Part shown: piece after piece, positions 39,961-63,880 of the stretch
How positions within the stretch are numbered: position 1 is the first letter of the stretch
How the letters are laid out: each line of letters starts with the position of its first letter
Source: an uncultured Acidobacteriota bacterium
Lineage (GTDB): Bacteria > Acidobacteriota > Vicinamibacteria > Fen-336
NCBI GenBank assembly: GCA_963742595.1
Contig: CAVUMT010000001.1
Coordinates: forward strand, 3,854,314 to 3,918,313
Reading direction: 5' to 3'
Length of the DNA: 64,000 nucleotides
The notes under the pieces: model-generated
The model's input: only the letters and a program-made list of their open reading frames with translations
The model's database searches: none
What the model was told of the DNA's origin: nothing
Translations under genes and position numbers: made by a program

Positions 39961-39961
39961 G

Positions 39962-40381: not shown

Positions 40382-40396
40382 CGTCGGCCTCCTTGC

Positions 40397-41885: not shown

Positions 41886-41900
41886 GACGCCCTTTCCGTC

Positions 41901-43725: not shown

Positions 43726-44032
43726 GTTCGATGTCGTCGCTAGGCTGTCGTACCAGTGCAACTCGGCCCACGGAGTTGACCGTGAGACAGCCGGACCATC
43801 GCTTCACCCTTCATCTCGAGCCGTGCCTCGTCCGCCGCATCGCATCGTTCGTCGGCCTCCACGCTCATGCTAGCCCTCGTCGTGTCAACCAGCTCTTCAG
43901 CCGCGCTCCAATTCCCGGAAGGCGGGGGAAAAAGGTGCGGCCCAGGTCGGCGAGGAGAGGATGGTCTGGACAAGCCTCACGAAGGATGCCGAGCCAATGA
44001 TCGAAGGCGTCTTGAGTCATCGGCTCAGCCCT

Positions 44033-44668: not shown

Positions 44669-44692
44669 CTCACCTCAGTCGGCCGAACACTG

Positions 44693-44796
44693 CGGATCAC
44701 CTGCGAAGCCGCGACTCAATGAAGAAAGGTGCGTCTGGGTACTCTTCCTCCAGGTAAGCCACGCACTTTGTCAGGTGCATCCGCTTGTTGGGCGGC
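44693..44796. other. Integron attC-like recombination site (a)
   Basis: gccgAACACtgcggatcacCTGCGAAG...CTTTGtCAGGtgcatccgcTTGTTgggc; arms pair with bulged bases. Confidence 0.7.
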
Positions 44797-44810
44797 TCAC
44801 GCGACTCCCT

Positions 44811-45206
44811 TTAAGGATGCCTTGCCTTCAGGCTGATGATGCACCAGAAGCCCATGACAGCGTGACCAACGACGATGGGCCAGAGGGCGATCCCGGACAC
44901 TCCCCAGACGAGAGCCGCATGGACAAGAATCGTAAGGACCCCGGCGTTGTAGAGCGCCATCGCGCCTACAAGGCCCCGCACCGCGCGAGTGCCTTCGTCA
45001 TGCCGCGCCAGCCAGCATGTAACTCCCAAAGCCAGCAGCGCCACCCCTGCGACACGCGCGACGACGAGCGCAGCGACCGAATCGAGTAATGAACCCAGTA
45101 TCAGAGACGACACGAGGGAGGGTTGTGCCAATAGCCCAAGACCAGTAGCGGCTTCCAGCACCGCGGTGACGGTCAGAACCTTGTTCATGCCCGATCTCTC
45201 CAGCAC
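44811..45206 (-). CDS. Cassette ORF: small 4-TM membrane protein
   Basis: Intact 131 aa; hydrophobic. Confidence 0.5.
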   Translation of the reverse strand: MLERSGMNKVLTVTAVLEAATGLGLLAQPSLVSSLILGSLLDSVAALVVARVAGVALLALGVTCWLARHDEGTRAVRGLVGAMALYNAGVLTILVHAALVWGVSGIALWPIVVGHAVMGFWCIISLKARHP

Positions 45207-45299
45207 GCGTCGCCCATGGGTTGTCTATCATCCTCGGGAACTCCGCCTCGGTCTTCCACCGAAGCGTCTGGGCTTGACCCGTTTTGGTAGACAGTCTCT

Positions 45300-46153
45300 C
45301 TATGCCGCCGGTTGATCGCCAACAGAGTAACGCCGTTCCATCTCGGCAGGGCTCGCGTATCCGAGGGACGAGTGTCGGCGCTGCTGGTTGTAGAACACCT
45401 CGATGTAGTCGAACAGCTGGTCCTTGGCATCACCTGGGGTATCGAACCGCTCGCCGAGCTCGAACTTGAGCGTCGAGAACCAGCTCTCCATGGCAGCGTT
45501 GTCGTAGCAGTTGCCACGGCGGCTCATGCTGCAGGTGATTCCACGAGCGGCCGAGTGTCCGACGGTAGTCCTCGCTGGCGTACGTACTGCCCTGGTCGGA
45601 GTGATGAAGCAGCCCGGCGTGCGGATCCGCGGCGCTGCAGCGCCTGGTCCAGGGCTCGAAGGGTGAGATGGCGATCGTTGACAGCGCTGATCGCCCAGCC
45701 GACGATGAGCCGCGAGTACAGGTCGAGGACGGCGGCGAGGTAGAGCTGCCGCTTCCCGCGAGCAACTCCGTGGTGTCACCGACCCACCGCTGGTTCGGCG
45801 ATGTGGCGTCGAACCGGCGGGCGAGCAGGTTCGGAGCGACCGGCTGATCGTGCTCGCTCATCGTGGTGCACTGGTACCGGCGACGGACACGAGCCTTGAG
45901 GCGCCCCTGGCGCATGAGTCGCGCGATCCGCTTGCGGCCCACGTGCTCTCCCTGAGGCCAGCTCGGCGTGGACGCGCGGGCTGCCGTAGGTTCGGCGACT
46001 GCGCTCGTGAGCCGCCTGGACCAGAACCGTCGAGCCTCCGATCCTCGCGCGCCCACCGCGACTCCGGGCGCTCCTGCCAGGCGTAGAAGCCAGCCCGAGA
46101 CACCGAGAGCACAGCGCACATCCTCGAAATCGGATACGCCGCCTTCTCCGCAT
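45300..46153 (-). pseudogene. IS3 transposase OrfB (DDE integrase), at least 2 extra frameshifts
   Basis: ...NQRWVGDTTELLAGSG..., ...CYDNAAMESWFSTLKFEL...YNQQRRHSSLGY... in 3 frames. Confidence 0.7.
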
Positions 46154-46168
46154 CGATGAACGCGAACC

Positions 46169-46498
46169 TCACGCGTTCTCCTTCGCGAAGAAGGCCGCGG
46201 CTTTTTTTAGGATGTCGCGCTCCATCCGCAGCTCGCGGTTCTCCTTGCGCAGCCGCGCGAGCTCCGCACGCTCCTCGGTGGTCAGGCCCGTCTTGCCCTT
46301 GGATCGGTCCGCGCTCGCATGGGAGACCCACGTCGCCACGGAATTGGCACTCAGGTCCAGGTCGCGAGCAACCTGGGCGATCGTCTTGCCTTCGTCCAGC
46401 ACCAGGCGCACCGCCCCGGCCTTGAACTCCTCCGTGAACGCCCGCCGCAGACGCTTGCTCCTACCCTCTTGCTCCTTCATGCTCGACATCGTATCCAC
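46169..46498 (-). CDS. IS3 transposase OrfA (HTH)
   Basis: MDTMSSMKEQEGRSKRLRRAFTEEFKAGAVRLV...; AAAAAAG heptamer at its end. Confidence 0.8.
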   Translation of the reverse strand: MDTMSSMKEQEGRSKRLRRAFTEEFKAGAVRLVLDEGKTIAQVARDLDLSANSVATWVSHASADRSKGKTGLTTEERAELARLRKENRELRMERDILKKAAAFFAKENA

Positions 46499-46538
46499 CT
46501 TTCATCGGGTGTCTACGAAATCGGGTCAAGCCCAGTCC

Positions 46539-46630
46539 GCCCAACACCGGGGTTGAGCTGCAAGCCTCCCCCGGCCAGCCGGGCCCGCAACCGTGGCTTG
46601 TCAGGTCCAGATACCCCTTGTTGGGCCGCG
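46539..46630. other. attC-like site (b)
   Basis: cccAACACcggggttgAGCTGCAAG...CTTGTCAGGTccagatacccCTTGTTgggc; IS copy 1 inserted 2-4 bp from its edge. Confidence 0.65.
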
Positions 46631-46641
46631 CCTTCACTCCG

Positions 46642-47397
46642 CTAGCCGGTAGACCTGACGAGCAAAGCCGACCGGGTCTTGGGCTTCGCCACTGATGGCC
46701 CTGTCAAGATAGCCCAGTCGGAGTTCTGAATGAGCGCCTCCATAGCATGGAATGGCTTTGCCGGAGGCCTCCACGCTCCGTCATGGCAGTGACTCAGAAG
46801 AGTTCCTCCATCCTCCAATCTGATCGCCAGCGCGTCGAGGGCGGCTTGCCGCTCGTCTGGAGCGAATACCTGAAGGGTGCGACGCTCAATGATGAGGTCA
46901 AACGGACCCCTACAGAGGGACGGGTCCACAATGCTGCCGACCACGTACTCCAAGGTACCGCCGGGTCGTCGGAGACTTGGGTTGAGCATCCGCTCGGATT
47001 CTCCGGGCCGAGGATCCCAGGTCTGTGCCAGCCTCAGGGCGACGGGAGATATGTCGAGGGCAACCACTTGAAGGCCTGCTTCGGCAAGGACCCGAGGCTC
47101 CTGCGACATCCCGCAACCAGCACAGAAAACCCGCGTCATGACATGACGGTTCATGAATTCAACTAGTTCGGTATCGTCGCAGAACATGTCGAACAATGGC
47201 GGGGCAAGTCCGTGGGCCACCTGCTCGCTCCAGTATTGGTCCCATGCAGCCGGGTCCCTTGTAGTGGAAGGAGGAAGGAGCCACCCGAGCTCATCTGCCC
47301 TTGCCTTCAGCCGCGAGGCCGCCAAGGCCCTGGCCGAGGTCCCCGGGTCGTAGCCTCTGGTGAACCAGTCCAGAAGGCCGCGAAGCGCTCGGATCAT
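46642..47397 (-). CDS. Cassette ORF: class I SAM-dependent methyltransferase-like
   Basis: Intact 251 aa; ...VFCAGCGMSQEPRVLAEAGLQVVALDISPVA... Confidence 0.55.
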   Translation of the reverse strand: MIRALRGLLDWFTRGYDPGTSARALAASRLKARADELGWLLPPSTTRDPAAWDQYWSEQVAHGLAPPLFDMFCDDTELVEFMNRHVMTRVFCAGCGMSQEPRVLAEAGLQVVALDISPVALRLAQTWDPRPGESERMLNPSLRRPGGTLEYVVGSIVDPSLCRGPFDLIIERRTLQVFAPDERQAALDALAIRLEDGGTLLSHCHDGAWRPPAKPFHAMEALIQNSDWAILTGPSVAKPKTRSALLVRSTG

Positions 47398-47413
47398 CGC
47401 CCCCTCCCTAACG

Positions 47414-47488
47414 TCGGCCCAACACCAGATCAGCTGTGGCGCTCAAGTCCTGCCGGCGCCGTCAGCCGCATCTTGTTGTTCTACGGCC
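47414..47488. other. attC-like site (c)
   Basis: ggcccAACACcagatcAGCTGtggcgc...gcgccgtCAGCcgcatctTGTTGTTc. Confidence 0.6.
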
Positions 47489-47496
47489 TCGCTCTT

Positions 47497-47718
47497 CTAT
47501 GAGGCTCGAACAGCCAGGATGTCGTTCGCGGCTACCGAGCGCAGGTCGGCCGCCGGCAACGTAAGCAAGGCCTTGGTGTGACCAGACGCGCGAACAAACT
47601 CCACCTCGAGAGCATCTGATCCGTGGAGCTCAACGACGGCACCGAGATCACCCGCACGCAAACCATGCTCAGGGAGATCTCGGTTTAGTACCACAGTATC
47701 CAGCAGCGCAAACTTCAT
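47497..47718 (-). CDS. Cassette ORF: DUF4926-like small protein
   Basis: 73 aa; ...VVLNRDLPEHGLRAGDLGAVVELHGSDALEVEF... Confidence 0.5.
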   Translation of the reverse strand: MKFALLDTVVLNRDLPEHGLRAGDLGAVVELHGSDALEVEFVRASGHTKALLTLPAADLRSVAANDILAVRAS

Positions 47719-47720
47719 GC

Positions 47721-48050
47721 TTACCTCGGGCGAACGGTGACGAGCCTGACATCAGCGCGCCCTGGTTCCTGGACCCACACCGTCACCACCGCTAGGCTTC
47801 CTGTGGGTCCAGTCAGATCGCCACGAACAGTGTACTTCCGCCCATAGTCGAAGTCCTCCACCTCGGCAACGTCTCCCACCACCGCGATGCGCCGAACTTC
47901 GGCAATAAAGTCGTCCGCCTTCGCATCGTCAAAGCCTACAGCGGCGAAGACCCTGGCCTTGAATCGCCCAACAGGATGGGTTGGGGACAGGAGGTAGGCG
48001 CGAATCTTGTGGGCGTCGATCTGGACCGCCTCAGCCTGCGGGAGCTTCAC
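47721..48050 (-). CDS. Cassette ORF: DUF6883-like partner of DUF4926 (putative toxin-antitoxin-like pair)
   Basis: 109 aa; 2 bp upstream of the DUF4926 ORF. Confidence 0.4.
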   Translation of the reverse strand: MKLPQAEAVQIDAHKIRAYLLSPTHPVGRFKARVFAAVGFDDAKADDFIAEVRRIAVVGDVAEVEDFDYGRKYTVRGDLTGPTGSLAVVTVWVQEPGRADVRLVTVRPR

Positions 48051-48607
48051 TCCTCGTCTCTCTCCTCACGGTCCGTCGAACTCCAAGGATCGGCTGCGAA
48101 GCACGACTCAATGACGCCGGCGCGCGAAGGCGCGCCTACGAAAGGAACACCGCGCTTCGTCAGCTGCATCCGCTTGTTCGGCTGCCGCTGCAGGACTTCA
48201 GAGGACTCAATGTCAACAGCAAGGTGCCAGCGCAGGCCACGATTCTCTGCCTCTTCCAGGAGATGCTGAAAGCCGACCAGTTCCAACGTCACGCCCCTGC
48301 TCTCGGGGATGGCTCCGGGATGATCGTCGAGGTACGCGATCAGAGCTCGAACGGTAGCCAACCCTTCGGCAGGCGCAAACCATTCTTCTTCGGGAACGGT
48401 CTCGGCTGTGAGACCTGTGTTGAACTGCTCAGCTTCGGCCAAAGCGTCCGCGGGATTCATGCTGAAGAAGGACATCAGCGAAGCAACCCCCAGCTTCTCC
48501 GCAAGCTTCCCAAGTTCTTCGTCGGCGCGCGAAAGATCATGACCGTCGACGTAAGTGTCAAAGCCGGGAGCGTCGGTGTTCAGAACGATGTAGAGCGCAG
48601 CGCCCAT
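48047..48607 (-). CDS. Cassette ORF: hypothetical protein (C-terminus reads through attC_d)
   Basis: 186 aa; C-terminal ...NKRMQLTKRG... encoded by the attC arm. Confidence 0.45.
   Translation of the reverse strand: MGAALYIVLNTDAPGFDTYVDGHDLSRADEELGKLAEKLGVASLMSFFSMNPADALAEAEQFNTGLTAETVPEEEWFAPAEGLATVRALIAYLDDHPGAIPESRGVTLELVGFQHLLEEAENRGLRWHLAVDIESSEVLQRQPNKRMQLTKRGVPFVGAPSRAGVIESCFAADPWSSTDREERDEE
48072..48184. other. attC-like site (d)
   Basis: gtcgAACtccaaggatcgGCTGCGAAGc...gCTTCGtCAGCTgcatccgcTTGTTcggc. Confidence 0.7.
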
Positions 48608-48620
48608 CGTTAGCTCAGGT

Positions 48621-48697
48621 CAGCCGAACACTGAGGATAACCTGTGAAGCTCCTTCGCTTGCGCTGGCTTCGCCAGGTTCATCTCTTGTTGGGCCGC
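48621..48697. other. attC-like site (e)
   Basis: gccgAACACtgaggataaCCTGTGAAGc...gCTTCGCCAGGttcatctcTTGTTgggc. Confidence 0.7.
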
Positions 48698-48963
48698 CCC
48701 GTCGATCCCCCGAGGCGCGACACGCGAATCCGGGAACAACTCTGCTGCAGCTTCTGGTTGAGATAGCTAGGATCGCGTGCAGCATGACGCTTGATCCGAT
48801 AGATGTTGTATGCGTCCATCAGGCAGTAGCAGGTGACGAGCATGAGGGGAATCAGCGTCGCCTTGCCTGGGTACTTGTAGGCGAGGCCGAGTAGTCCCAC
48901 GATTACCACGCTCAGGAACTTGACCGACGCCTGAGATTGCCGGAGCGCCGTCTTGTACTTCAC
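48679..48963 (-). CDS. Cassette ORF: small 2-TM membrane protein
   Basis: 94 aa; hydrophobic. Confidence 0.4.
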   Translation of the reverse strand: MKYKTALRQSQASVKFLSVVIVGLLGLAYKYPGKATLIPLMLVTCYCLMDAYNIYRIKRHAARDPSYLNQKLQQSCSRIRVSRLGGSTGRPNKR

Positions 48964-49168
48964 GCCCTCTCACCCCGTAGCAGTAACGCTTGCGCCATGC
49001 TTCGCGGAGGGAACGCTGGCGACCGTCACTTGCACGACGCCGTTAGCAGCAGACGTCGCAGAGCAACGGACCTCAACGTCGGACTGGAATTCCTCCGCCC
49101 AAGCCCACGACGCTGCGACCGCACTCCTCGCACCTCCACGCGTCTGCTTCCCGTTCGACCTTATCCGT

Positions 49169-49253
49169 CCGCAGAACACTGCGGATGAGCTGCGAACGGC
49201 GCCTCCGTCTTGGCTCGGGCGACGTTCGTCAGCTCCATCCGCTCGTTCGCCCG
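49169..49253. other. attC-like site (f)
   Basis: gcagAACACtgcggatgAGCTGCGAAcg...cgTTCGtCAGCTccatccgcTCGTTcgc. Confidence 0.7.
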
Positions 49254-49262
49254 CTCGCTCAC

Positions 49263-49502
49263 CTACTTCGGAACATCCTCCAGTCGGGTCCCGAGGCCGG
49301 CTCTGATTGCAGTCCGTGCCTGCTCGATCTGGCGTAAAAACTCCGGATGATTCTCAAGCCTGTACTCGAACCAGTCATCCTCGCTTTCGAAACCGATCAA
49401 CACGCCGGCTGGTCTTCCGTGGCGGGTGATCAGAATCTCCCGGTCGGCTGCGAGCTTTAGGTACCGCGAGAGGTCGTCCTTCACCTCCGCCAAGGCGACC
49501 CG
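49263..49502 (-). CDS. Cassette ORF: Phd/YefM-family antitoxin
   Basis: ...LAEVKDDLSRYLKLAADREILITRHGRPAGVLIGFESEDDWFEYRLENHPEF... Confidence 0.6.
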   Translation of the reverse strand, partial: RVALAEVKDDLSRYLKLAADREILITRHGRPAGVLIGFESEDDWFEYRLENHPEFLRQIEQARTAIRAGLGTRLEDVPK

Positions 49503-49797
49503 GCGGGGTTGGGGTAGCCTCTTGCGCGAGCCAGCCCTCCGCCTGCTCCTTCGGGATGATGGCGAGGACTTCAACCGTCGTTTCCGTGACGTCATAGAAC
49601 ACCCTAACCTCATTCACCCTGAGCCGATACTGCGGCCGATTCAGTCCACGCAAGCGCTTGATACGACTCTTGCTGAGCTTGGTCGGCTCGTGGCGCAGGT
49701 GCAGCTCGATGGCATCCCGGACTCCCGTCTGGAAGTCAGCTCTCAGGGCCTTCAGACCCCTGACAGCCTGAGGGGCCAAGACGATCTCGAACGGCAT
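49500..49797 (-). CDS. Cassette ORF: RelE/ParE-family toxin (ORF track extends to 49375 without a stop)
   Basis: MPFEIVLAPQAVRGLKAL...SRIKRLRGLNRPQYRLRVNEVRVFYDVTETTVEVLAIIPK... Confidence 0.6.
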
Positions 49798-49844
49798 CTG
49801 GCCAGATTATAGCCAGAATGCTATCTCGTCGCTCCCTCAATGTC

Positions 49845-49958
49845 GGGCGAACACCAAGGATCAGCTGCAAAGCGCGACTCAGTTAAGGAAGCCGATCCGC
49901 GGAACCCTTCCTCCAAGTCTAGCTCGCGCTTTGCCAGCTGCATCCGCTCGTTGGACGG
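49845..49958. other. attC-like site (g), long-loop variant
   Basis: cgAACACcaaggatcAGCTGCAAAGcgcgactcag...ctagctcgcgCTTTGcCAGCTGcatccgcTCGTTggac. Confidence 0.65.
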
Positions 49959-50345
49959 CTCCCTCGATCTCTGGCTTTACGTGGTGCGTTCCATGGCTCT
50001 TCGAACTCTCCAAGCGTAGATCCCGCTTCACGTAAGGCCACTCGCTTCCCAAGGAGGCGTGGCGCGGCGCGTGCTCGCCCTGCAAGGGATGTGACGCCCC
50101 TCGGGACGCCATAGCTCCCTTCATTGCCCAGCAACCTCATGATGCCAGATCCCCGACGAGTGCCGCGAAGGTCTGCGCTCTCGCGGGAGACTCCACTGCC
50201 CAGCTCACTCTTCGCTCGCGGAGTCCTCTCGATTGCCGTGGGGGCGGCGCATCCCTTGCTACCACTGCACGCGACGTGACACGCCGGATTCGAACGACGA
50301 TCTCCACCTACTCACCGCGTCCGTTTCCCACACGATCCGTTAGGC
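49958..50345. repeat. About 390-bp cassette-like element (copy 1), no convincing ORF; duplicated at 55591-55980
   Basis: Near-identical to 55591-55980 (starts ggctccctcg(a/c)tctctggctttacgtggtgcgttccatggctc...). Confidence 0.75.
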
Positions 50346-50428
50346 CGTCCAACACTGGATTGAGCTGCAAAGGCCGCGGTTCCTCGCCGGCGCGGACTTC
50401 GTCTGCTCCAATCCTTTGTTGGGCGGCA
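50346..50428. other. attC-like site (h)
   Basis: gtccAACACtggattgAGCTGCAAAGg...cTTCGtCTGCTccaatccTTTGTTgggc. Confidence 0.7.
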
Positions 50429-50441
50429 CCGTGATTCCACC

Positions 50442-50780
50442 TCATCGTAACGCTGACGCATCGCCCGTGCGACGCGCACGCCTCACGCGGCCGAGCCATA
50501 AGACTAGCCCCACGAACAGGGATGCGGCGATCAGGGATGCCACTGCTGCGTCGACCACGGGACCAACAATGTATCTCGCCTCGAAGATGTTGAGGCTCCC
50601 CCAGAGGAGCCAACAGAGTCCGCCCGCAACGACGTTCAACGGTAGGAAGAGCCACGAGAAGACTGCTTCGAACGCGGAGAACCAGGACTCGCTCTGATTG
50701 CTGGTCACGAAGACCCACCAGCAGAGTATGTGGAGACCTGAATAGCCGTAGACGGCGCTGACAACCCACCGTACGTTCAT
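50442..50780 (-). CDS. Cassette ORF: small membrane protein
   Basis: 112 aa; 3-4 TM. Confidence 0.45.
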   Translation of the reverse strand: MNVRWVVSAVYGYSGLHILCWWVFVTSNQSESWFSAFEAVFSWLFLPLNVVAGGLCWLLWGSLNIFEARYIVGPVVDAAVASLIAASLFVGLVLWLGRVRRARRTGDASALR

Positions 50781-50794
50781 GATTCAGTCAATCT

Positions 50795-50880
50795 CAGACA
50801 AGTTGGTTCGGAGGCGGCCAGTGTGGCTTCGTGCCCCTCAGCATGTCCGCCCGCTCACGAAGGGCCCAATGTTCCTACCG
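50795..50880. other. Degenerate attC-like site (i)
   Basis: ggccagtgtggCTTCGTGcccc...gctCACGAAGggcccaatgttcc; correct position between cassettes but atypical arms. Confidence 0.35.
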
Positions 50881-50901
50881 GCCGCTCGCGGCGCGACGAG
50901 T

Positions 50902-51189
50902 TCATGCGACCTCCATCTCATGTGGGGCAAGGCCAATGCTGTGGCTGCGGGATCCGTCGCTTTCATCCCAGACCCTCTCGACCCAGGCAGAGCCGAACTC
51001 GTCGATCTCATACACCTCAAAGACTGCCCCGAGCATGGACTCGATGTCCGGCCGCTCATCAACCGGCAGCTTTGCGATTAGCGACACCGGAATCTCAAGT
51101 ACACGCACTCTTGTGCCCACCGTGATCTGCCGGCCTGACCGGTCGGTCGTCGCCTTATGTTGCTGCATCGTCAAATGCCCGCCCAACAC
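50902..51189 (-). CDS. Cassette ORF: hypothetical soluble protein
   Basis: 95 aa; no family recognised. Confidence 0.4.
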   Translation of the reverse strand: MLGGHLTMQQHKATTDRSGRQITVGTRVRVLEIPVSLIAKLPVDERPDIESMLGAVFEVYEIDEFGSAWVERVWDESDGSRSHSIGLAPHEMEVA

Positions 51190-51258
51190 TGGATTAAGCT
51201 GCGAAGCGCGTCCAATCTAGCCACCGCGCTTCGTCAGCTTCAATCCATTGTTCGACGG
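51177..51258. other. attC-like site (j)
   Basis: cgcccAACACtggattaAGCTGCGAAGcgcg...cgcgCTTCGtCAGCTtcaatccaTTGTTcgac. Confidence 0.75.
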
Positions 51259-51295
51259 CCCTTCACTTGGAGGCGTCGCCTCTCAACCACCGTTC

Positions 51296-51631
51296 TCATC
51301 CGGTCACGACACCCAAAACGACCAGGACGCTCACGCCAACGGCGAAACATGCCGTCAGCACCATCTCTGAGTTGGCAAGTCCAACGCCCGCTCTCCGCCC
51401 TCGAACGATGCACACCACGGAGACCAGTAGGTACACAGGTGACGCCCAAAGCGCCATTCCCAGCCCCACGAGAAGCAGAGTAGCTGGACTCGGAGATGTA
51501 TGGACGTTGAGAGCCGGCGCGGCCAGGCCTCCTAGCACGCCCAGACCAACGACTACCCATCCTGATCGCACGAGCCATGACGGGAGGACGCCGTCGTCAA
51601 CTGTAGAATCGCTGTGCCCAACTCCGGTCAT
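51296..51631 (-). CDS. Cassette ORF: small membrane protein
   Basis: 111 aa; 3 TM. Confidence 0.45.
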   Translation of the reverse strand: MTGVGHSDSTVDDGVLPSWLVRSGWVVVGLGVLGGLAAPALNVHTSPSPATLLLVGLGMALWASPVYLLVSVVCIVRGRRAGVGLANSEMVLTACFAVGVSVLVVLGVVTG

Positions 51632-51687
51632 CGCGCCCCGGAGACTGAGTTGTCAGCTCGGCAGGTCATCATCTCCGCTTCACTCGG

Positions 51688-51766
51688 TCCGTCGAACACC
51701 GGGGATAAGCTGCGAGCGTCCAATATGCTCAACGCTCGTCTGCTTCATCCCCTTGTTCGACGCCGC
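51688..51766. other. attC-like site (k)
   Basis: gtcgAACACcggggataAGCTGCGAGCGtccaatatgctcaACGCTCGtCTGCTtcatccccTTGTTcgac; near-identical to site p. Confidence 0.75.
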
Positions 51767-52307
51767 CGCCCTTCCGCCGAGCCACACCACTGGGCTCAGA
51801 CTCTACTCCCCAGAATGCCGATAGCGCTTGAATCATCGAACGCGCACGCGACCTTGCGGTGTACTGGTGCGCGAATCCGACAGCTGCCATGAACACGAGC
51901 CAGCCACCCAGGAACCTGGCTTCGTTCGCATGCCAGGCGAGGCCGAGAAGGCTGATGCCAGCCAACACGCACACAGCCGAGACGAGGTTGCCCCAGGGAT
52001 CCTCGGTGAGCTCAACCCTCACCATGCTCGCCATACTTTCGGCTGGCTTGACGACGCCTTGGGCACGGAAGCGGCTTCGGAGGACTAAGTAGAGGATGTC
52101 GAACTTGTCGCCTTCGGCTGCGACGCTCGCGAGGAACAGGCCGCGTGGCGACCATCGATGACTTGGCGGAACCTGCCGGACATCCGTCGCCTTCCTCAAC
52201 CTCGCGACGACCTCTGCGGGAGGCTCCCCTAGGGTGATATCAGCCGCGGCGATCATTCGCCACATGGCCAGCGTGCCTCCAGCGCTCCTCGACAAGGCGG
52301 CGAACAC
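51729..52307 (-). CDS. Cassette ORF: hypothetical membrane protein (C-terminus ...QGDEADER encoded by attC)
   Basis: 192 aa ORF; shares its attC-encoded tail with the ORF at 54637. Confidence 0.4.
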   Translation of the reverse strand: MFAALSRSAGGTLAMWRMIAAADITLGEPPAEVVARLRKATDVRQVPPSHRWSPRGLFLASVAAEGDKFDILYLVLRSRFRAQGVVKPAESMASMVRVELTEDPWGNLVSAVCVLAGISLLGLAWHANEARFLGGWLVFMAAVGFAHQYTARSRARSMIQALSAFWGVESEPSGVARRKGGGVEQGDEADER

Positions 52308-52378
52308 TGAGATGAGCTGCGAGGGCCGCGCCGCCTCGCCGTCGCGGACCTCGTCAGCTCCATCTCATTGTTGGGCGT
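52297..52378. other. attC-like site (l)
   Basis: gcgAACACtgagatgAGCTGCGAGGgccgcg...cgcggaCCTCGtCAGCTccatctcaTTGTTgggc; gagatg/catctc covary. Confidence 0.75.
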
Positions 52379-52449
52379 CTGGTGATTTGGCTGACCTGCC
52401 CGGGCCACCTCGGCTTGCCCGCTGCCGGCGGAGCGAGGCAGGCACGCCC

Positions 52450-52866
52450 TCACTTGCGGTACGCAGACGCAAATGGCCCGTAAAGCACCGGAGCCTCTTT
52501 GTCGCGAGAGCGCTTCTCGATGACTACCGTGACGTTGTCACCCGACCGATACACCGCGTACCGCGGCCACGACGACCCACTGGAGGAGATGCGACATTTC
52601 GAGTAGTCGGGTCCGAGGGGGGGACCGGCGTAAACGTGTCTCGGGTCAGACAGCTGCCCTTTCGATTCGAGAGTCTTGATAAGCGCTTCAAGCGCCGGCT
52701 CGCACTCCTCCAGCGGCACCGCTTTGCTCGCCACGGCGTTCACGGGCGACGCGATCGTGCTCGCAAGGAGGGCACAGAGCACGCCCCTCGCAAGCCAGCG
52801 CGGCGGGGAGGCGAAGGCAAGATCGTTTTCCGTCTGCATGGACCCTCTATTGCACGCCCAACACAT
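52450..52866 (-). CDS. Cassette ORF: small secreted protein
   Basis: Signal-like ...LARGVLCALLASTIASPVNA... Confidence 0.45.
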   Translation of the reverse strand: MCWACNRGSMQTENDLAFASPPRWLARGVLCALLASTIASPVNAVASKAVPLEECEPALEALIKTLESKGQLSDPRHVYAGPPLGPDYSKCRISSSGSSWPRYAVYRSGDNVTVVIEKRSRDKEAPVLYGPFASAYRK

Positions 52867-52933
52867 GGATCAGCTGCGAGCGGCGTCCATTCTCGCCGCG
52901 CCGCTCGCCAGCTGCATCCATTTGTTATCCGGC
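52855..52933. other. attC-like site (m)
   Basis: gcccAACACatggatcAGCTGCGAGCGGCGtccattctcGCCGCGCCGCTCGcCAGCTGcatccatTTGTTatcc. Confidence 0.75.
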
Positions 52934-52953
52934 TGCTCCTTCCCGCGCAAGGC

Positions 52954-53451
52954 TCAGGGCTTCCCTGAAGCGGGCGCAACCACGAGAACACCAGTATCGG
53001 GATCCTTGGACCGCTCCTCGAAGGCAGCCTGGAGAGCCGCGTCCTTGAGGAGAGCATCGAAGTAACGCTTGGATGCGGTAACCAGGGCCGCGTAGAAGTC
53101 CTCTGCGTTCAGGACTGTGAGACCGCCATCCGTCGTGAGATGGACTTGGCTGTTGTGGTGAGTGAGCTTGTAGGGACCGGGTGAGAACCCATGAACGGCT
53201 GCGTTGCGGAGCTTCCACAGAGGATCGGCGTGGCTCGGGTACGGATCGGCGAAGTAGTCCTTCAGGAATCCCCTGAAGCGCGCACCATTTCCTTCGTTCG
53301 GCTTGAGAAAGCCACCGAGCGCCTCGATAGCCGTGAGGGAACAGATGAACGAGAGAAAGGCGCCATCATCGTTCAGGAGGCAGGGAATGCCCCCCAGGTA
53401 AATTCGGCCGAAGTTGCCTGCAACGTGCTTGATTAGGTCCGGCGTGCTCAT
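52954..53451 (-). CDS. Cassette ORF: hypothetical protein
   Basis: Intact 165 aa; soluble; no family recognised. Confidence 0.45.
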   Translation of the reverse strand: MSTPDLIKHVAGNFGRIYLGGIPCLLNDDGAFLSFICSLTAIEALGGFLKPNEGNGARFRGFLKDYFADPYPSHADPLWKLRNAAVHGFSPGPYKLTHHNSQVHLTTDGGLTVLNAEDFYAALVTASKRYFDALLKDAALQAAFEERSKDPDTGVLVVAPASGKP

Positions 53452-53482
53452 GCTCGTCTCCAGCCGCGCTCTTCAGATGTCC

Positions 53483-53556
53483 GGATAACACTGCGTTCAG
53501 CTGCGAGCGGCGTCCATTCTCGCCGCGCCGCTCGTCAGCTGCAACGCATTGTTCGA
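53483..53556. other. attC-like site (n)
   Basis: ggatAACACtgcgttcAGCTGCGAGCGGCG...CGCCGCTCGtCAGCTGcaacgcaTTGTTcgac; same loop as site m with covarying stem hexamer. Confidence 0.75.
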
Positions 53557-53564
53557 CGGTGCCT

Positions 53565-54062
53565 TCAAGGGTGCTCGCTCGCGGGCGCAGCGACACGTCG
53601 CTTGCGACGGTTCAGGTATGCCGCGCCGGCCCACCCGATCGCCCACCACTGAGCGCAGCTCACGACGACGAATACTCCAGTGGCGACCCAACTCGCAGCC
53701 CGTAGCCCCAGCCGGCCTTCGAAGGCCGCGGAGGTCAGAGCAGCGAAAAGCGCGCCTGGGAGGTTCACCAAGATCGCCGCCACCTTGAGGGGGCCGTCCT
53801 CCCAGTAGTGGCCTCCGAAGCCGCGCTCGGCCAGGACGAGCATCGAACGCGTACCGGAACGCAGATGGAACTCGACCCCCGTGGCGGTGTGAACCTCCCA
53901 CGAGTCGGGTGTCACAAAGTACTCGGCAGGCAGGCGAGGGGTGCTGACGACGAGGGCCAGCCAGAACGCTACGTGAACCGCTACGAGGCCGTTGGCGAGT
54001 GCAGTCACTCGCTCAGACACCCACGCCACCAGTTGCTCGCTCCTTGATCCATGTCCGAGCAT
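53565..54062 (-). CDS. Cassette ORF: membrane protein
   Basis: 165 aa; 4 TM. Confidence 0.45.
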   Translation of the reverse strand: MLGHGSRSEQLVAWVSERVTALANGLVAVHVAFWLALVVSTPRLPAEYFVTPDSWEVHTATGVEFHLRSGTRSMLVLAERGFGGHYWEDGPLKVAAILVNLPGALFAALTSAAFEGRLGLRAASWVATGVFVVVSCAQWWAIGWAGAAYLNRRKRRVAAPASEHP

Positions 54063-54064
54063 CC

Positions 54065-54140
54065 GTCGAACACTGGAGTTAAGCTGCGAAGCTCCGAAGT
54101 CTACCAGGCTTCGTCAGCTTCAACTCCTTGTTCGGCGGCC
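54065..54140. other. attC-like site (o)
   Basis: gtcgAACACtggagttaAGCTGCGAAGCtccgaagtctaccagGCTTCGtCAGCTtcaactccTTGTTcggc. Confidence 0.75.
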
Positions 54141-54161
54141 TCGCCCCACCCCCGAGATGTA

Positions 54162-54656
54162 TCACAGCAAGGGGATGTTGTAGTCGGGATACCGGAGTGG
54201 CGTCAGGTGCACCAACGCTGATATCGCGCACAAGAGCACGACGAGGAGAACCAGAATGATCCGCTCGGTTGGGCTTGTGGTCACTCCGTTCTGGCGTGCG
54301 CGGAAGACCTTCACCAGGGCGACTGGAATCCACACGAACGCTGCGAGATAACCCCAGCTGCCCAGCCACGCCAAACCGAAATCGACGTTCATGATACGAA
54401 GGTCGAACTGCGCACCACCGTTAGCGTCGATACGCAGTGGCTGCTCCGGCTGCCACCATTGGCCCGGCAGTCTAGGGAGGAGTAGCAGGAGATCAAAGAG
54501 GACGAGAGCAATCCCGAACGCACAGAGCCACCCGACCAGTCGCATTCGTCGGCTCAACACGGGCTGCGCGGTCGTCACGCGTCGCTCTCCAACGGTCCGC
54601 CGAACACTGGGGATAAGCTGCGAGCGTCCAATATGCTCAACGCTCGTCTGCTTCAT
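54162..54656 (-). CDS. Cassette ORF: membrane protein
   Basis: 164 aa ORF; likely starts at internal MRLVGWLCAFG...; 3-4 TM. Confidence 0.45.
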   Translation of the reverse strand: MKQTSVEHIGRSQLIPSVRRTVGERRVTTAQPVLSRRMRLVGWLCAFGIALVLFDLLLLLPRLPGQWWQPEQPLRIDANGGAQFDLRIMNVDFGLAWLGSWGYLAAFVWIPVALVKVFRARQNGVTTSPTERIILVLLVVLLCAISALVHLTPLRYPDYNIPLL

Positions 54657-54673
54657 CCCCTTGTTGGACCGCC
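54597..54673. other. attC-like site (p)
   Basis: gccgAACACtggggataAGCTGCGAGCGtccaatatgctcaACGCTCGtCTGCTtcatccccTTGTTggac. Confidence 0.75.
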
Positions 54674-55152
54674 CCGTCGATCCACCTCACTGAGCCACCG
54701 AACCGGCGCGCCAGTTCTCTCGCGAGTTCCTCTGCCACCGTTCCGATAATGTGGATGGGGGCGTCAGCCGCGAACGCGTCAGGCCACTCCACCAGAGGCG
54801 CATCACCTCCATAGATGAAGAGGTGATCGGCCAATTCGGGTTCTGCATTTGCTGCAGCGAGTCTGCCGAGTTCTTCAAGGACCGCAGAAGTGAAGGGGAG
54901 GCGCCACTGCTCGGAGCGTGGCCACATGGTCTGCGGAGCTGGGAGGTACGGGCCCGGCACTCGAAGCTGCTCGAGCGACTGCCGCACCGACTGGGATTGG
55001 GAAGTCCCCTCCAGAAACAGAGTGCTTCCGCCGATCGCAACTGAACCCACGTTCTCGAAGAACCGCTGGGCATTAGTGACACCCAGTACCTCCCACCGCG
55101 GCTGGTCCCACAGACTCAACGGCACTCTAGCAGTCACGTTGCCTGCGTCCAA
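54637..55152 (-). CDS. Cassette ORF: hypothetical protein (tail ...QGDEADER from attC)
   Basis: 171 aa; soluble; no family recognised. Confidence 0.4.
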   Translation of the reverse strand: MDAGNVTARVPLSLWDQPRWEVLGVTNAQRFFENVGSVAIGGSTLFLEGTSQSQSVRQSLEQLRVPGPYLPAPQTMWPRSEQWRLPFTSAVLEELGRLAAANAEPELADHLFIYGGDAPLVEWPDAFAADAPIHIIGTVAEELARELARRFGGSVRWIDGAVQQGDEADER

Positions 55153-55164
55153 TCTCGAAAGGTC

Positions 55165-55242
55165 GGTCCAACACCGGGGATAAGCTGCGAAGCTCCATCG
55201 CTTGCGCCGGCTTCGTCTGCTTCATCCACTTGTTGGGCCGCA
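55165..55242. other. attC-like site (q)
   Basis: ggtccAACACcggggataAGCTGCGAAGCtccatcgcttgcgccgGCTTCGtCTGCTtcatccacTTGTTgggc. Confidence 0.7.
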
Positions 55243-55386
55243 CCGTGATTCGACCGCACTAAGGACCGGTCTCTGACGTGTGGTACGCCACGACGCGCCA
55301 GGCATCGCTTGTACGCACGTAGACCTTCATGAAGCGCCAGTGGGCTTGACCCGATTTCGTAGACACCCGATGAAAGGTGGATTACG

Positions 55387-55590
55387 ATGTCGAGCATGAA
55401 GGAGCAAGAGGGAAGGAGCAAGCGTCTTCGACGGGCGTTCACGGAGGAGTTCAAGGCCGGGGCGGTGGGCCTGGTGCTGGACGAAGGCACGACGATCGCC
55501 CAGGTTGCTCGCGACCTGGACCTGAGTGCCAATTCCGTGGCGACGTGGGTCTCCCATGCGAGGGCGGACCAATCCAAGGGCAAGACGGGC
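55387..55590 (+). pseudogene. IS3 OrfA, truncated after ...SKGKTGLT by internal insertion
   Basis: MSSMKEQEGRSKRLRRAFTEEFKAGAVGLVLDEGTTIAQVARDLDLSANSVATWVSHARADQSKGKTGLT then unrelated sequence. Confidence 0.7.
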
Positions 55591-56118
55591 CTGACGGCTC
55601 CCTCGCTCTCTGGCTTTACGTGGTGCGTTCCATGGCTCTTCGAACTCTCCAAGCGTAGATCCCGCTTCACGCAAGGCCACTCGCTTCCCGAGGAGCGTGG
55701 AGCCGCGCGGCTGCCTGCAAGGGATGTGACGCCCCTCGGGACGCCATAGCTCCCTTCATTGCCCAGCAACCTCATGATGCCAGATCCCCGACGAGTGCCG
55801 CGAAGGTCTGCGCTCTCGCGGGAAGACTCCACTGCCCAGCTCACTCTTCGCTCGCGGAGTCCTCTCGATTGCCGTGGGGGCGGCGCATCCCTTGCTACCA
55901 CTGCACGCGACGTGACACGCCGGATTCGAACGACGATCTCCACCTACTCACCGCGTCCGTTTCCCACAGCGATCCGTTAGGCCGTCAACCGCGGATCAGC
56001 TGCAAAGCGCGACTCAGTTAAAAAAGCCGATCCGCGGACCTTCTTCCAAGGAGACTGCGCTTTGCCAGCTGCATCCGCTCGTTGGACGGCTCCCTCGCTC
56101 TCTGGCTTTACGTGGTGC
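55591..56118. repeat. Insert inside IS copy 2: 390-bp element copy 2 + attC-like site (55983-56091, near-identical to site g) + 36-bp direct repeat of the element start
   Basis: Circular permutation of the unit attC_g + element seen at 49845-50345; direct repeats ggctccctcgctctctggctttacgtggtgcgttc at 55591 and 56083. Confidence 0.7.
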
Positions 56119-56983
56119 GTTCATGGCCTTGCGGAGAGGGCGGCGTATCCGATTCGAGGATGTGCGCTTTTCTCTCGGTGTCTCGGGCTGGCTTCTATGC
56201 CTGGCAGGAGCGCCCGGAGTCGCGGTGGGCGCGCGAGGATCGGAGGCTCGCGGTTCTGGTCCAGGCGGCTCACGAAGGGCAGTCGCCGAAGCTACGGCAG
56301 CCCCCGCGTGCATGCCGAGCTGGCCTTTCAGGGAGAGCACGTGGGCCGGAAGCGGATCGCGAGACTCTGCGCCAGGGGCGCCTCAAGGCTCGTGTCCGTC
56401 GCCGGTACAAGAGCACCACGATGAGCGAGCACGATCAGCCGATTGCTCCGAACCTGCTCGCCCGCCGGTTCGACGCCACATCGCCGAACCAGCGGTGGGT
56501 CGGTGACACCACGGAGTTGCTCGCGGGAAGCGGCAAGCTATACCTGGCCGCCGTCCTCGACCTCTACTCCAGGCTCATACGCTGGCTGGGCGATCAGCGC
56601 TGTGAACGATCGCCATCTCACCCTTCGAGCCCTGGACCAAGCATCTGCAGCGCCGGGATCCGCACGCCGGGCTGCTTCATCATTCCGATCAGGGCAGTAC
56701 GTACGCCAGCGAAGACTACCGTCGGACACTGGCCGCTCGTGGAATCACCTGCAGCATGAGCCGCCGTGGGGACTGTTACGACAACGCGGCCATGGAGAGC
56801 TGGTTCTCGACGCTCAAGTTCGAGCTCGGCGAGCGGTTCGATACCCCAGGTGATGCCAAGCACCAGCTCTTCGACTACATCGAGGTGTTCTACAACAAGA
56901 AGCGCAGACACTCGTCCCTGGGATACGCGAGCCCTGCCGAGATGGAACGGCGTTACTCTGTTGGCGATCAACCGGCGGCATAG
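56119..56983 (+). pseudogene. IS3 OrfB (DDE transposase), frameshifted
   Basis: ...EKAAYPISRMCAFLSVSRAGFYAWQERPESRWAREDRRL..., ...NQRWVGDTTELLAGSGKLYLAAVLDLYSRLI..., ...CYDNAAMESWFSTLKFEL... Confidence 0.7.
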
Positions 56984-57014
56984 AGAGACTGTCTACCACA
57001 ACGGGTCAAGCCCA

Positions 57015-57324
57015 AGCGGTCAACACGCCCGTCTCGCCGACGCCAGCGGTGTAGAGCCGTTTCCCGTTCAGGTGCACCTCGAACCCGACCATGATCAGCG
57101 TGCCCTCCAATCTGTCGGTGTCATCGCCCGCTTAGCAACGTCCGCAGAACACTTAGTATCTTGCAAGGATAACGCCTTTGGCCTTGCGTGGTTTGCAAGG
57201 TAACGCCGAGGATCCAGTTCCGAGGAGGGGGAAGTAACGCCCGGGAAGGAGGTTGCGGGGGGCGGGTGGTTTCACGAGGGTGATAGCTTGCGTCGGATAA
57301 CGTTTTGGCCACGCGAAGGCTTGG
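57015..57324. other. Candidate attI / Pc region between IS copy 2 and the intI 3' end
   Basis: Contains gcagaacactt (half-attC-like junction) followed by direct repeats cttgcaaggataacgcc / tttgcaaggtaacgcc (IntI-binding direct-repeat-like). Confidence 0.35.
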
Positions 57325-58390
57325 TCAGGGGGTCGGGTCGGCGGCGATGGAGTCGAGGGGGCTGCGGACGCCGCGACCGCCGCGGTTGAGGACGTGGGTG
57401 TAGATCATGGTGGTGGAGACGTCGCTGTGGCCCAGGAGCTCCTGGATGGTGCGGATGTCGTAGCCGCTCTCCAGCAGGTGCGTGGCGAACGAATGGCGGA
57501 GGCTGTGGCAGGTCGCGGGCTTTGAGATGTTGGCGGAGCGCACTGCGTTCTTGAAGGCTCGCTGAATGGCGGATTCGTGCAGGTGGTGGCGGAGCCGCTC
57601 GCCCGTCTTTGGATCGACGTACAGCCGGCTGGCCGGGAAGACCCACTGCCAGGGCCACTCGCGACGAGGCGTTCGGGTATTTTTCGGCGAGGGCGTGGGG
57701 AAGCCGCACGGTGCCCACACCGGCCCGCCGATCGTTGTCGTAGCGGGTGCGGACACGGTCGATGTGGGCGCGCAGTGGAGGGGCCAGGCGATCCGGGCAG
57801 CATCGTGACCCGGTCCTTGTCGCCCTTGCCGGAGCGGACGGTGAGCTCTCCCCGAGCGAAGTCGACGTCCTTGATCCGGAGCTGGGCGCACTCGAGGACG
57901 CGGAGGCCCGCGCCGTACATCAGCGACGCCATCAGGCCGAACGCACCGTTCAAGTGGCTCAGGATGAGCGCCACCTCCTGCCGCGTGAGGGTCTGGGGCA
58001 GCCGCTCCGGCCTCTTGGCGCGCACCACCTTGTCCAGCCCCTCGAGCTCGCGTCCCAGGACTTCGCGGTAGAGGAACAGCAGCGCGCTGAAGGCCTGGTT
58101 CTGCGTGCCGGCGCTCACACTCGGCGTGTACGGCGAGGCGCGTCAGGTAGGCGCCGACGTCGTCTGCGCCCAGGGACTCCGTGTCGCGGCCCCGGTGGAA
58201 CGCGCAATAGCGCTGGATCCAGCCGAGATACGCCTTCTCCGTTCGGCGGCTGTAGTGACGCGTCCGAAGCAGATCGCGCGTGCGGTCGATCAGCGGCTTG
58301 GGCGGACCGCCGTTGGAGCGCCGTCGAACCTGTCCGGTGACCACGATGCGCGCCGGGCCGGTGAAGTCGGTACGCGGGTCGGGCGGGCGG
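57325..58390 (-). CDS. intI: Integron integrase IntI (tyrosine recombinase with IntI-specific insertion), two frameshifts; maximal ORF to 58491
   Basis: ...[24 protein letters not shown]..., ...[36 protein letters not shown]...[37 protein letters not shown]..., ...[106 protein letters not shown]. Confidence 0.85.
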
Positions 58391-58567
58391 AAATCGGGGG
58401 GAGGCGCGACGCTCGTCGTCACGCGCCCTCCGCGGGCGCGAGGCGGGGACGTCGCCGGCCAGGGCGGAGTGCCGCCGAGCGGATTGCCCATCGGCCAAGC
58501 CTAGTCGGGAGGGCGGACGGGGGAGGTCCGGAACGGATTGCGGTCTGGACGACACACCGGTGCGCCC

Positions 58568-60069
58568 TAGACGACCGAGTCGCGCTCCACCCGCCGGATG
58601 GCGCGATAGCGGTCGAACGCCGTGCGCTCGGGCTCCAGGCCCAGCCAGGAGCGCCAGGTGCTGCCGCGGAAGGTGTGGGCGAGCATGGCGCGGCCGTGGC
58701 GCAGGACGAAGCCGGGTCTGCTGAGCGAGGGCGGCGGGGAAGTGGCGGACCTTCATCCAGCGCTCCGCGCCGCCAGCGCAGGAACTCGATCTCGTCCGCG
58801 GACAGGTGCTCGCTGCGCACCACCGCGGTGGTGCCGTCGTACTCCTCGACGCGCTCGTTCACGATGAGGCCCCGGTCGCGCAGGTCGCGGGTCATGGGCG
58901 TGCGCGGGTAGGGCGTCGGGTGCTGGATGTACGGCCAGTCCACGTAGCGGCGGGCGAAGTCGAGGTTCGCCTCGATCGACTCGCGGGTGTCGTCCGGGGT
59001 TGCCGACGATGAGGCCGCCCACCACGTACATGCCGTTGCGGTGCAGAGCCTCGATGGCGTCGATGGTGGCGTTGCCGGTGCGGCGGCCGTGCTCGCGCTT
59101 GCGCGTTCTTGGCGCTCGCCTTCAGGAAGCCGAGGTCCTCCTCGAGGACGTTCTCGATCCCCAGGAAGACGTAGCGGAAGCCGGCCTCGCGCATGAGCGG
59201 GGCGAGCGTCTCCGCCGGAGTTCGCGATGGCCGAGGTCATGCCCTGGACCATGTACTCGACGTGGTGGAGACCCGCCTCCACGATCGCCCGGCACAGGGC
59301 CTCGAAGCGCGTCGACGTTGAGCGTGATGTTGTCGTCCACCATGAAGATGGCGCGCGCCCCGTGGTCGCGCGCGTCGCGGATGTCGTCGAGCACGCGGTC
59401 GAAGGCGAAGGTGTGGAAGTTGCGGCCGCGCATCTCGATGATCGAGCAGAAGCTGCAGTCGAAGGTGCAGCCGCGCGAGGTCTCGATCACGTCCACCGGC
59501 CGGCCCAGGAGGGTGTAGCCGCGAGAGGACGCGCGCGGCGCGCTGGGGCGGCCGGATCTGACCGTTCTCGAGTCCGTGTGACCGGTCGGGCGTGTTCGTG
59601 CGGTATTCCTGCCCGTCGCGATAGGCCAGCCCGGGATGTCTTCGAGAGCCCGTCCCGTTCTCCAGCGCGCGCAGCAGCTCGCGGAACGTCGATCTCCCCC
59701 TCGCCCCGCACGACGAAGTCGGCGGTGCCGTCCGTCCAGGCCTCGGGCGCGAGGCTCGGGTCGTAGCCGCCGACCACGATCCGGGCTTCGGGCCGCAGCG
59801 CCGCGCACGATCGCGACGATCCGCCGGGCGGTGCGGCGCTGGAAGGTCATGACGGAGAGGCCGACCACGTCGGGCTGGCGCTCGCGGACGAGCCGCGTCC
59901 ACCGTCTCGCGCACCGCCCCTGGGCCAGGATGAGGTCCGCGACCGCCACCCGGTGGTGGGGATCGACGTTGCCGGCCAGGGAGGAGAGCGCGCCGTTGGG
60001 CATGCGGATGGCCACCGAGGACATGTGCTCGAAGGAGTCCGGCATCGACAGCAGCAGGACGTTCATCGG
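58568..60069 (-). CDS. B12-binding-domain radical SAM protein (frameshifted)
   Basis: N-terminal MNVLLLSMPDSFEHMSSVAIRMPNGALSSLAGNVD... (B12-binding); ...ETSRGCTFDCSFCSI... (CX3CX2C). Confidence 0.65.
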
Positions 60070-60172
60070 ACGGCTTCCGCGAGGACATGGTACGCCCGTG
60101 CGCAAGCTCGGTCTGTCAACTCGGAAAAGATCGGCTACGATCAGGCGGGTCGTCCAACGCGAACGGCGGGGC

Positions 60173-61986: not shown

Positions 61987-61996
61987 CCGGCGCCGC

Positions 61997-62378
61997 CTAG
62001 CTGGTGGCGCGCGACTCCAGCATCGTGTTGACGATGGTCAGGAGCTTGTTCGCCGTGAAGGGCTTGTTGATGTACATGACGGCCCCCGACTCGAAGCCCT
62101 CGGCGAGCGCCTCGCCCCCGCCCTTGGCGGTGAGGAAGATGACGGGCACGTCCTTGAGGCGCGGGTCTTCCTTGATCTTCCGGCAGACGGTGAAGCCGTC
62201 GACCTCCGGCATCATCACGTCGAGCAGGACGAGGTCGAAGGCGTGCTCGGCCAGGAGCTTCAGGGCCTCCGGCCCCGCCGCCCGCGGCCGTCACGTCGAA
62301 CCCCTTCTGCTCGAGGATCGTGCGCTCGAGGCTCAGGATGTTCTCGTCGTCGTCCACGACCAGGATCCTCTTGGCCAT
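61997..62378 (-). CDS. Single-domain response regulator (CheY-like), one frameshift
   Basis: MAKRILVVDDDENILSLE..., ...LVLLDVMMPEVDGFTVCRKIKEDPRLKDVPVIFLTAKG... Confidence 0.7.
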
Positions 62379-62475
62379 CAGGACCTCCGGAGCCGACGTC
62401 TCCGCAACCCGGCGATTCTAGCAAGCCACCACCGCGTTGTCAGCAATGGGTTTGTCGGGCTTCGAGCCAAAGCGC

Positions 62476-63069: not shown

Positions 63070-63145
63070 CGGCCCTCCGTATCCCGACTCCTGCCAGAGC
63101 AGGCTCGGCGCCGTAAGAGTACGTCAACTGGGGAACGCGAGCGAG

Positions 63146-63835: not shown

Positions 63836-63880
63836 CCCGAAATGCGCCTGGCCCCTACCGCTCCACCACCACTTCTCCGC

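Follow-up and report, generated by a model that had tools for sequence, protein, structure and literature searches.

A probable sedentary chromosomal integron of the inverted-integrase type in an uncultured high-GC bacterium

The window analysed here, a stretch of 64,000 nucleotides from an uncultured Acidobacteriota bacterium, carries an integron integrase gene (intI), a putative attI site past its 3' end and a cassette array interrupted by two insertion sequences (IS). The features of the locus are listed below, where R1 and R2 are two covariance models of attC sites and P0001 is the closest database protein to the window IntI (94% identical).

58567..60066, minus strand: radical-SAM gene with a B12-binding domain, upstream of intI and transcribed in the same direction; chromosomal border; many frame switches
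57325..58491, minus strand: intI, integron integrase (full TIGR02249 profile and tblastn of P0001)
57148..57246, minus strand: putative attI, with the core ACTAAGTGTT at 57157..57148, the crossover at 57150|57149 and GCGTTAY boxes upstream
57015..57149, minus strand: 5' part of cassette 1, opening with the R'-derived TTCTGCGGAC and an ORF start; cut by IS#2
55341..57014, plus strand: IS#2, an IS3-family element in cassette 1 (HTH_Tnp_1, HTH_21, rve), its interior partly replaced
55982-56089, top strand minus: 17th attC site, inside IS#2 (R1 and R2)
55164..55340, minus strand: 3' part of cassette 1, with its own attC at 55164-55240
44680..55240, top strand minus: cassette array with 16 attC sites (R1 and R2)
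44680-44795, 46537-46628, 47415-47486, 48073-48184, 48621-48696, 49169-49253, 49844-49958 and 50345-50426 (plus-strand coordinates), top strand minus: attC sites 1-8 of the array
51179-51258, 51689-51763, 52297-52378, 52854-52932, 53481-53559, 54063-54138, 54597-54671 and 55164-55240 (plus-strand coordinates), top strand minus: attC sites 9-16 of the array
45269..46534, minus strand: IS#1, an IS3-family element (HTH_Tnp_1, HTH_21, rve) with the 3-bp target duplication GTC
43763..43855, minus strand: possible degenerate terminal attC; weak, with 10.6 bits for R1 and no R2 match

Between 44.7 and 56.1 kb, in a region of ~62% GC as compared with ~70% in the flanks, repeat finding and a hairpin scan detected a set of related imperfect palindromes. 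The 17 sites align as a single family, in which 96.7% of cells are paired in the hairpin and 9 of 18 pairs show compensatory changes, with a covariation score of 0.364; shuffles scored 0.129, and slid controls no higher than 0.078. Folding of the plus strand leaves a T and a C bulged out singly, with a 6-bp stem between them, on the 3' arm, the arm opposite 5'-AAC-3'. The position of the bulged bases is a published criterion for the recombinogenic bottom strand (PMC5027507). As the bulges mark the plus strand as the bottom strand, the attC top strand, which has the sense of the cassettes, is the minus strand. All 17 sites thus combine imperfect hairpins, AAC/GTT R boxes and extrahelical bases on one arm, the features by which attC sites are recognized.

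An ungapped arm-matching scan for attC returned no sites because the arms carry bulges, and a hairpin scan based on minimum free energy (MFE), usable within the array, was noisy in the 70% GC flanks; we used covariance models instead. R1, built from the 17 attC sites of the window, recovers exactly these sites, all on the minus strand, at 57-82 bits. R2, built only from attC sites of other loci, themselves found with R1, recovers 17 of 17 on the minus strand at 42-69 bits and reaches only 13-27 bits on the plus strand. With filters off, R1 found nothing significant in the whole window beyond the 17 sites, including the 5.5 kb 5' of intI, and R1 and R2 together detected no attC to the right of 56089 or 5' of intI; the two models share an ancestry in the window sites, and a very different attC class elsewhere could escape both.

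The six cassette ORFs with significant Pfam matches (DUF4304, methyltransferase families, DUF6883, DUF4926, ParE and Phd) all lie on the minus strand and, together with the 17 attC top strands, bear out the first-pass annotation, which had described intI and the cassettes as co-oriented on this strand. Two of the cassettes contain two genes each, DUF6883 with DUF4926 at 47500-48065 and ParE with Phd at 49266-49806; in the latter the toxin ORF lies upstream and, in a different frame, overlaps the antitoxin ORF. Sedentary arrays typically include toxin-antitoxin cassettes. The conserved flank, homogeneous attC sites and length of the array are those of a sedentary chromosomal integron, with the qualification that its 17 attC sites fall below the threshold of >19 applied by some authors. 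At the distal end, a minus-strand ORF (43023-43727), which looks by eye like a MOSC-domain protein, starts 36 nt past the weak terminal attC at 43763-43855, and the GC content is back to the flank level near 43.0 kb. This ORF may be either the last cassette or the first chromosomal gene.

The integrase gene appears in the ORF list as a 388-codon minus-strand ORF (58491..57325), the middle third of which is out of the integrase frame. Three-frame translation of the minus strand shows that the integrase reading passes from frame 0 to 1, to 2 and back to 0, and a tblastn search with P0001 (364 aa) aligns residues 1-364 in four segments in frames -3/-1/-2/-3 without any in-frame stop. The frame breaks correspond to three single-base insertions, a T near 58118 (GAG-T-GTG), a G near 57795 and a C near 57661, and two of the three lie clearly outside homopolymers. 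Owing to these three frameshifts, intI as written is not translatable. Once they are corrected, IntI scores 453 bits against the NCBIfam profile TIGR02249 'integron integrase' (cut-off 265), covering positions 2-314 of 315, and by this profile it is an integron integrase. It also matches Pfam Phage_int_SAM_4 and Phage_integrase, and a database search with it returns thousands of homologues titled 'integron integrase'. The corrected protein keeps the conserved catalytic-site motifs and is 91-94% identical to P0001 in three segments (residues 102-364) and 82% identical in the N-terminal segment. Comparison with P0001 indicates that the real start is likely the GTG at 58422, as in that protein.

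We traced the coding frames with a GC3-periodicity HMM run over the window. Zones with a frame switch every 100-350 bp (1-12300, 26600-28400, 33800-39950 and 57300-62500) are set apart from zones with kilobase-long coherent frames (12800-26600 and 39949-42831), an alternation that looks like uneven assembly or polishing quality and that bears on any ORF-based reading of the window. All 16 frame switches between 57328 and 61260 share one direction. Such switches are at least as dense in the radical-SAM, MTAP and PfkB genes next to intI as in intI itself, and other parts of the window are clean. Frame-by-frame Pfam scans found single domains split over frames: the B12-binding domain is divided between two frames (profile positions 43-80 and 77-115), and so is PNP_UDP_1 (profile positions 36-146 and 104-208). 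The contig encoding P0001 carries unbroken counterparts of these genes, namely a 496-aa B12/radical-SAM protein, PNP_UDP_1, PfkB and the 364-aa IntI.

We interpret the insertions in intI as part of the local error background and not as the sign of a pseudogene, since frame switches are at least as dense in the neighbouring genes and the matching genes of the P0001 contig are intact. Judged from the sequence, assembly error fits the switch pattern better than decay. The locus could otherwise be regarded as a decaying relic, in which three frameshifts had made intI a pseudogene and the array was frozen, in effect a CALIN beside a dead integrase, and such a relic would agree with the three frame changes, the two IS insertions in the array (one within cassette 1) and the internal rearrangement of IS#2. 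We consider it improbable given the shared direction and the wider spread of the switches, the intact genes of the P0001 contig, and a corrected IntI with no in-frame stop, its catalytic-site motifs and its close identity to P0001.

The array had been proposed to abut the 3' end of intI, and the crossover at 57150|57149 indeed lies 175 bp past the stop codon (57325-57327), where the minus strand reads ...GGGCGTTACTTCC...CGGCGTTACCTTGCAAACCACGCAAGGCCAAAGGCGTTATCCTTGCAAGATACTAAGTG|TTCTGCGGAC.... The sequence 3' of G|TT resembles the R' end of the window's own attC sites, as expected at a cassette boundary, and the half-attC-like junction gcagaacac described earlier is found at 57144-57152. Both direct repeats reported for the candidate attI are also present, at 57160-57176 and 57192-57207, and are joined by a third box, GCGTTAC, at 57230-57242, forming a series of GCGTTAY boxes with a spacing of 31-34 bp. 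As GCGTTAYC has 5 matches in the whole window against 1.7 expected, which is weakly above chance, the support for attI comes from local clustering and from conservation across loci.

The core ACTAAGTG|TT is identical in the related loci L001, L004, L077 and L082, 150-220 nt past intI, and ACTAAGTGTT occurs in one copy in each of them, on the intI strand and at the same distance past the integrase; L004 and L077 are Vicinamibacteria loci. At attI, L082 agrees with the window over a run of 27 bases, GGCGTTATCCTTGCAAGATACTAAGTG, and has a second GCGTTATCC box 31 nt upstream, a spacing as in the window, and the corresponding region of L083 retains ...GGCGTTAC..GCAA..TACTAAG. Divergence begins directly past G|TT in every related locus compared. 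Because the integron side is conserved and the cassette side is variable, we assign the candidate site as attI. On these comparisons, the attI adjoining intI, at which insertion would occur at G|TT, appears to have kept its core in five loci. By analogy with attI1 and its repeats DR1 and DR2, the GCGTTAY boxes are presumed to be accessory sites for IntI binding. Separately, an attI-like GCGTTATCAGCTGCTATCTAAGTGTTAATCG occurs on the intI strand ~710 nt past intI in L080 (positions 1680-1730), a Methylophilales locus of the otherwise canonical clade, where it may reflect chance or a second type of site.

The 5' end of intI faces, across 75-144 bp, the 3' end of the radical-SAM gene that had been placed there, a B12-binding, co-directional gene at 58567-60066. 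The order Response_reg, TonB_C, PfkB, PNP_UDP_1, radical SAM, intI is the same on the P0001 contig, and a search for flanking genes common to the window and 81 related loci gave no match at E<=1e-8. A second attC array on the 5' side of intI would have spoken against a co-oriented integron; neither covariance model, with filters off, detects one there, and the region is syntenic housekeeping DNA. The 5' side offers no space for an attI or an array and shows no sign of either. In principle the array could be foreign to intI, with the true attI located 5' of the gene and the downstream array adjacent by chance. Nothing beyond the canonical expectation favours this arrangement, and it is extremely improbable in view of the short distance from intI to the stop of a co-directional housekeeping gene, the lack of attC sites on that side and the conserved attI core downstream of intI.

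Two further repeat regions were observed in the window. Three small paralogous genes in tandem (62476-63967, minus strand) contain 246-nt repeats at 74% identity, spaced by 670-712 bp, and adjoin the position that the TonB_C gene occupies on the P0001 contig. A large plus-strand gene at 37340-38730 has 126-nt periodic repeats, which look like two-component-regulator propeller repeats.

Both IS copies have the HTH_Tnp_1, HTH_21 and rve architecture typical of the IS3 family and are 94-97% identical to each other in opposite orientation. IS#1 is inserted at a cassette boundary, 9 nt from the AAC of the attC at 46543. IS#2, which occupies 55341-57014, directly below 57015, and is absent from the first-pass annotation, lies 135 bp beyond the crossover; it separates intI and attI from the remaining array but not from each other. 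It is flanked by CAG on one side and AGC on the other, with no clean 3-bp target duplication. In place of positions 321-437 of the element (117 bp) there are 521 bp derived from a cassette (55596-56116), with the attC at 55982-56089 inside them.

This 521-bp insert repeats the cassette at 49850-50350 (region 49844-50372) in circularly permuted order, as tail, attC and cassette start to tail, with ~44 nt duplicated and identities of 96% and 90%. Neither junction is at the canonical G|TT; one lies at GTC|CAAC, at the edge of the R'' box. An IntI-mediated, attG-like insertion of the cassette DNA was considered and rejected as unproven, neither junction being at the G|TT of R'.

Being located inside cassette 1, beyond attI, IS#2 did not create the layout. 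We also considered that intI might be a fragment relocated by IS activity; the gene is full length, and no IS separates it from attI. A divergent integron of the canonical type could have acquired its co-orientation through an IS-mediated inversion, or through misassembly across the inverted IS copies, and the near-identity and opposite orientation of the two copies, together with the proximity of IS#2 to attI (135 bp) and its lack of a clean target duplication, would fit such an event. This origin is very improbable: minus-strand polarity is already evident on the intI side of IS#2, in the attI core, the R'-type junction and the start of cassette 1; the attC outside the IS pair (44680-44795) and those between the copies are oriented alike; the GTC duplication of IS#1 is intact; and five relatives that have no IS at this position carry the same attI at the same place past intI.

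Taken together, our data lead us to interpret the locus, with a probability of roughly 85%, as an 'inverted integrase' integron, chromosomal and sedentary, of an uncultured high-GC bacterium, into which IS elements inserted later without changing its orientation. The sequence itself establishes what IntI is and that it is complete, how the attC sites are built and which way they point, that attI is conserved, and the order of the genes; recombination by IntI and the mode of cassette expression are inferred. The minus strand encodes the IntI tyrosine recombinase, and attI, lying ~175 bp downstream of the intI stop codon, comprises the conserved core and three or four GCGTTAY boxes, which recur at about every third turn of the helix and are presumed to be accessory sites for IntI binding. 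Incoming circular cassettes would recombine through the folded attC bottom strand, the plus strand of the window, with attI at G|TT, 57150|57149. Insertion at this point means that each new cassette would land directly past intI and in the same transcriptional direction. Repeated insertion would have built the array of ~17 cassettes reaching down to ~43.8 kb, and the two IS3-family elements would have entered afterwards, one of them into cassette 1, leaving the orientation unchanged.

To place this layout among its relatives, we assembled 80 loci from species-representative genomes and four from metagenome contigs and oriented them by attC strand with R1 and R2, of which 54 gave attC matches. 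Half of these (27/54) are co-oriented, with attC sites on the intI strand and downstream of intI, and the other half (27/54) are canonical, with attC sites on the opposite strand and upstream of intI; no third configuration was observed. The nine relatives of at least 63% identity with an orientation call are all co-oriented (9/9):

P0001, 94%: co-oriented, called by synteny only
L082, 74%; L084, 70%; L001, 68%; L083, 68%: co-oriented, metagenome contigs
L002, 67%; L005, 66%: co-oriented, Eisenbacteria
L004, 66%: co-oriented, Vicinamibacteria
L055, 63%: co-oriented, Acidobacteria gp6

The co-oriented set also spans Elusimicrobiota, Bacteroidota, Omnitrophota, Planctomycetia, Thermoanaerobaculia and others. 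The canonical set consists mostly of Proteobacteria, with Verrucomicrobiae, Nitrospira, Methylomirabilis, Anaerolineae and cyanobacterial loci represented by one each. R1 alone gave no orientation for the classical 'inverted' taxa Chlorobiaceae, Planctomycetia and cyanobacteria, some of which were resolved with R2. A neighbour-joining (NJ) tree without bootstraps and without Treponema references groups the window IntI with the co-oriented L001 and L004, and the canonical loci called by that stage all fell into one other clade. With fuller orientation calls, one intermediate clade contains both co-oriented and canonical loci, in agreement with the published view that the inverted group is not cleanly monophyletic (PMC4889954).

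These results do not sustain the suggestion that the locus extends a rare layout to a new lineage, as the co-oriented arrangement accounts for half of the orientable loci, is universal among the closest of them and belongs to a group already in the literature. The inverted-integrase layout is described in PMC3607928, PMC4889954, PMC8352920, PMC9668308 and PMC13323075, and PMC3575428, citing Boucher 2007, names the 'inverted integrase group' as one of three broad IntI groups. PMC8352920 reports this group as a sub-clade from soil and freshwater, PMC4889954 reports it as paraphyletic, and current pipelines handle both layouts as standard (PMC13323075). The locus adds an ordinary member to a known type and does not extend a rare one. 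Co-oriented intI and cassettes are common in metagenome-assembled genomes (MAGs) from soil and not unusual in themselves.

A promoter and terminator scan of 56900-58700 found no sigma-70-like site that could serve as Pc and no intrinsic terminator, the sigma-70 consensus being one that the host may not share. Our best guess is that transcription reading through from intI, or from the operon upstream of it, expresses the cassettes, or that the 175-bp spacer contains an unrecognised promoter. A broader proposal, which we advance tentatively and regard as doubtful, is that the co-oriented layout with a 3' attI (ACTAAGTG|TT and phased GCGTTAY boxes) is the default in a large non-proteobacterial IntI radiation, with no dedicated Pc and read-through from intI or the housekeeping operon. 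Expression of the integrase and of the first cassette would then be coupled, unlike the divergent Pint/Pc regulation of model integrons. As a clean, well-delimited inverted-integrase example with a comparatively supported attI, the locus could serve as a template for studies of cassette expression and attI in an understudied half of integron diversity.

The known picture of integron types is unchanged by this locus, which shares features with several of them. It belongs to the same broad IntI radiation as the canonical soil/freshwater integrons of Nitrosomonas, Methylobacter and Gallionella (L044, L014 and L058; 55-62% identity), and the attC sites of such integrons are detectable with the same covariance models; the arrays of L044 and L014, however, lie upstream of intI on the opposite strand, and L058 gave no attC match. 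In class 1 integrons, attI1 consists of a simple site and the direct repeats DR1 and DR2 of the GTTAY type. The window attI likewise has direct repeats of this type, GTTATCC and GTTACCT, ahead of a G|TT crossover, but attI1 is positioned 5' of the divergent intI1 with Pc nearby, whereas the window attI is positioned 3' of intI and has a repeat spacing of 31-34 bp, and the scan around it found no Pc. Archaeal integrons have a semi-conserved attI immediately downstream of intI, with the canonical insertion point (PMC9668308), and resemble the window in the location of attI directly past intI; they belong to another domain of life, and the window has the ACTAAGTG|TT core and the GCGTTAY boxes. 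In Treponema integrons, intI is transcribed toward attI, in the direction of the cassettes (PMC3607928). The host in the present case is a high-GC soil-type bacterium and not a spirochaete, and the window IntI most resembles the IntI proteins of MAGs from Vicinamibacteria, Eisenbacteria and Acidobacteria (66-68%), but as in the Treponema denticola-type inverted integrons the array lies 3' of intI and is chromosomal and sedentary, and IS elements within such arrays are known there too (PMC3607928).
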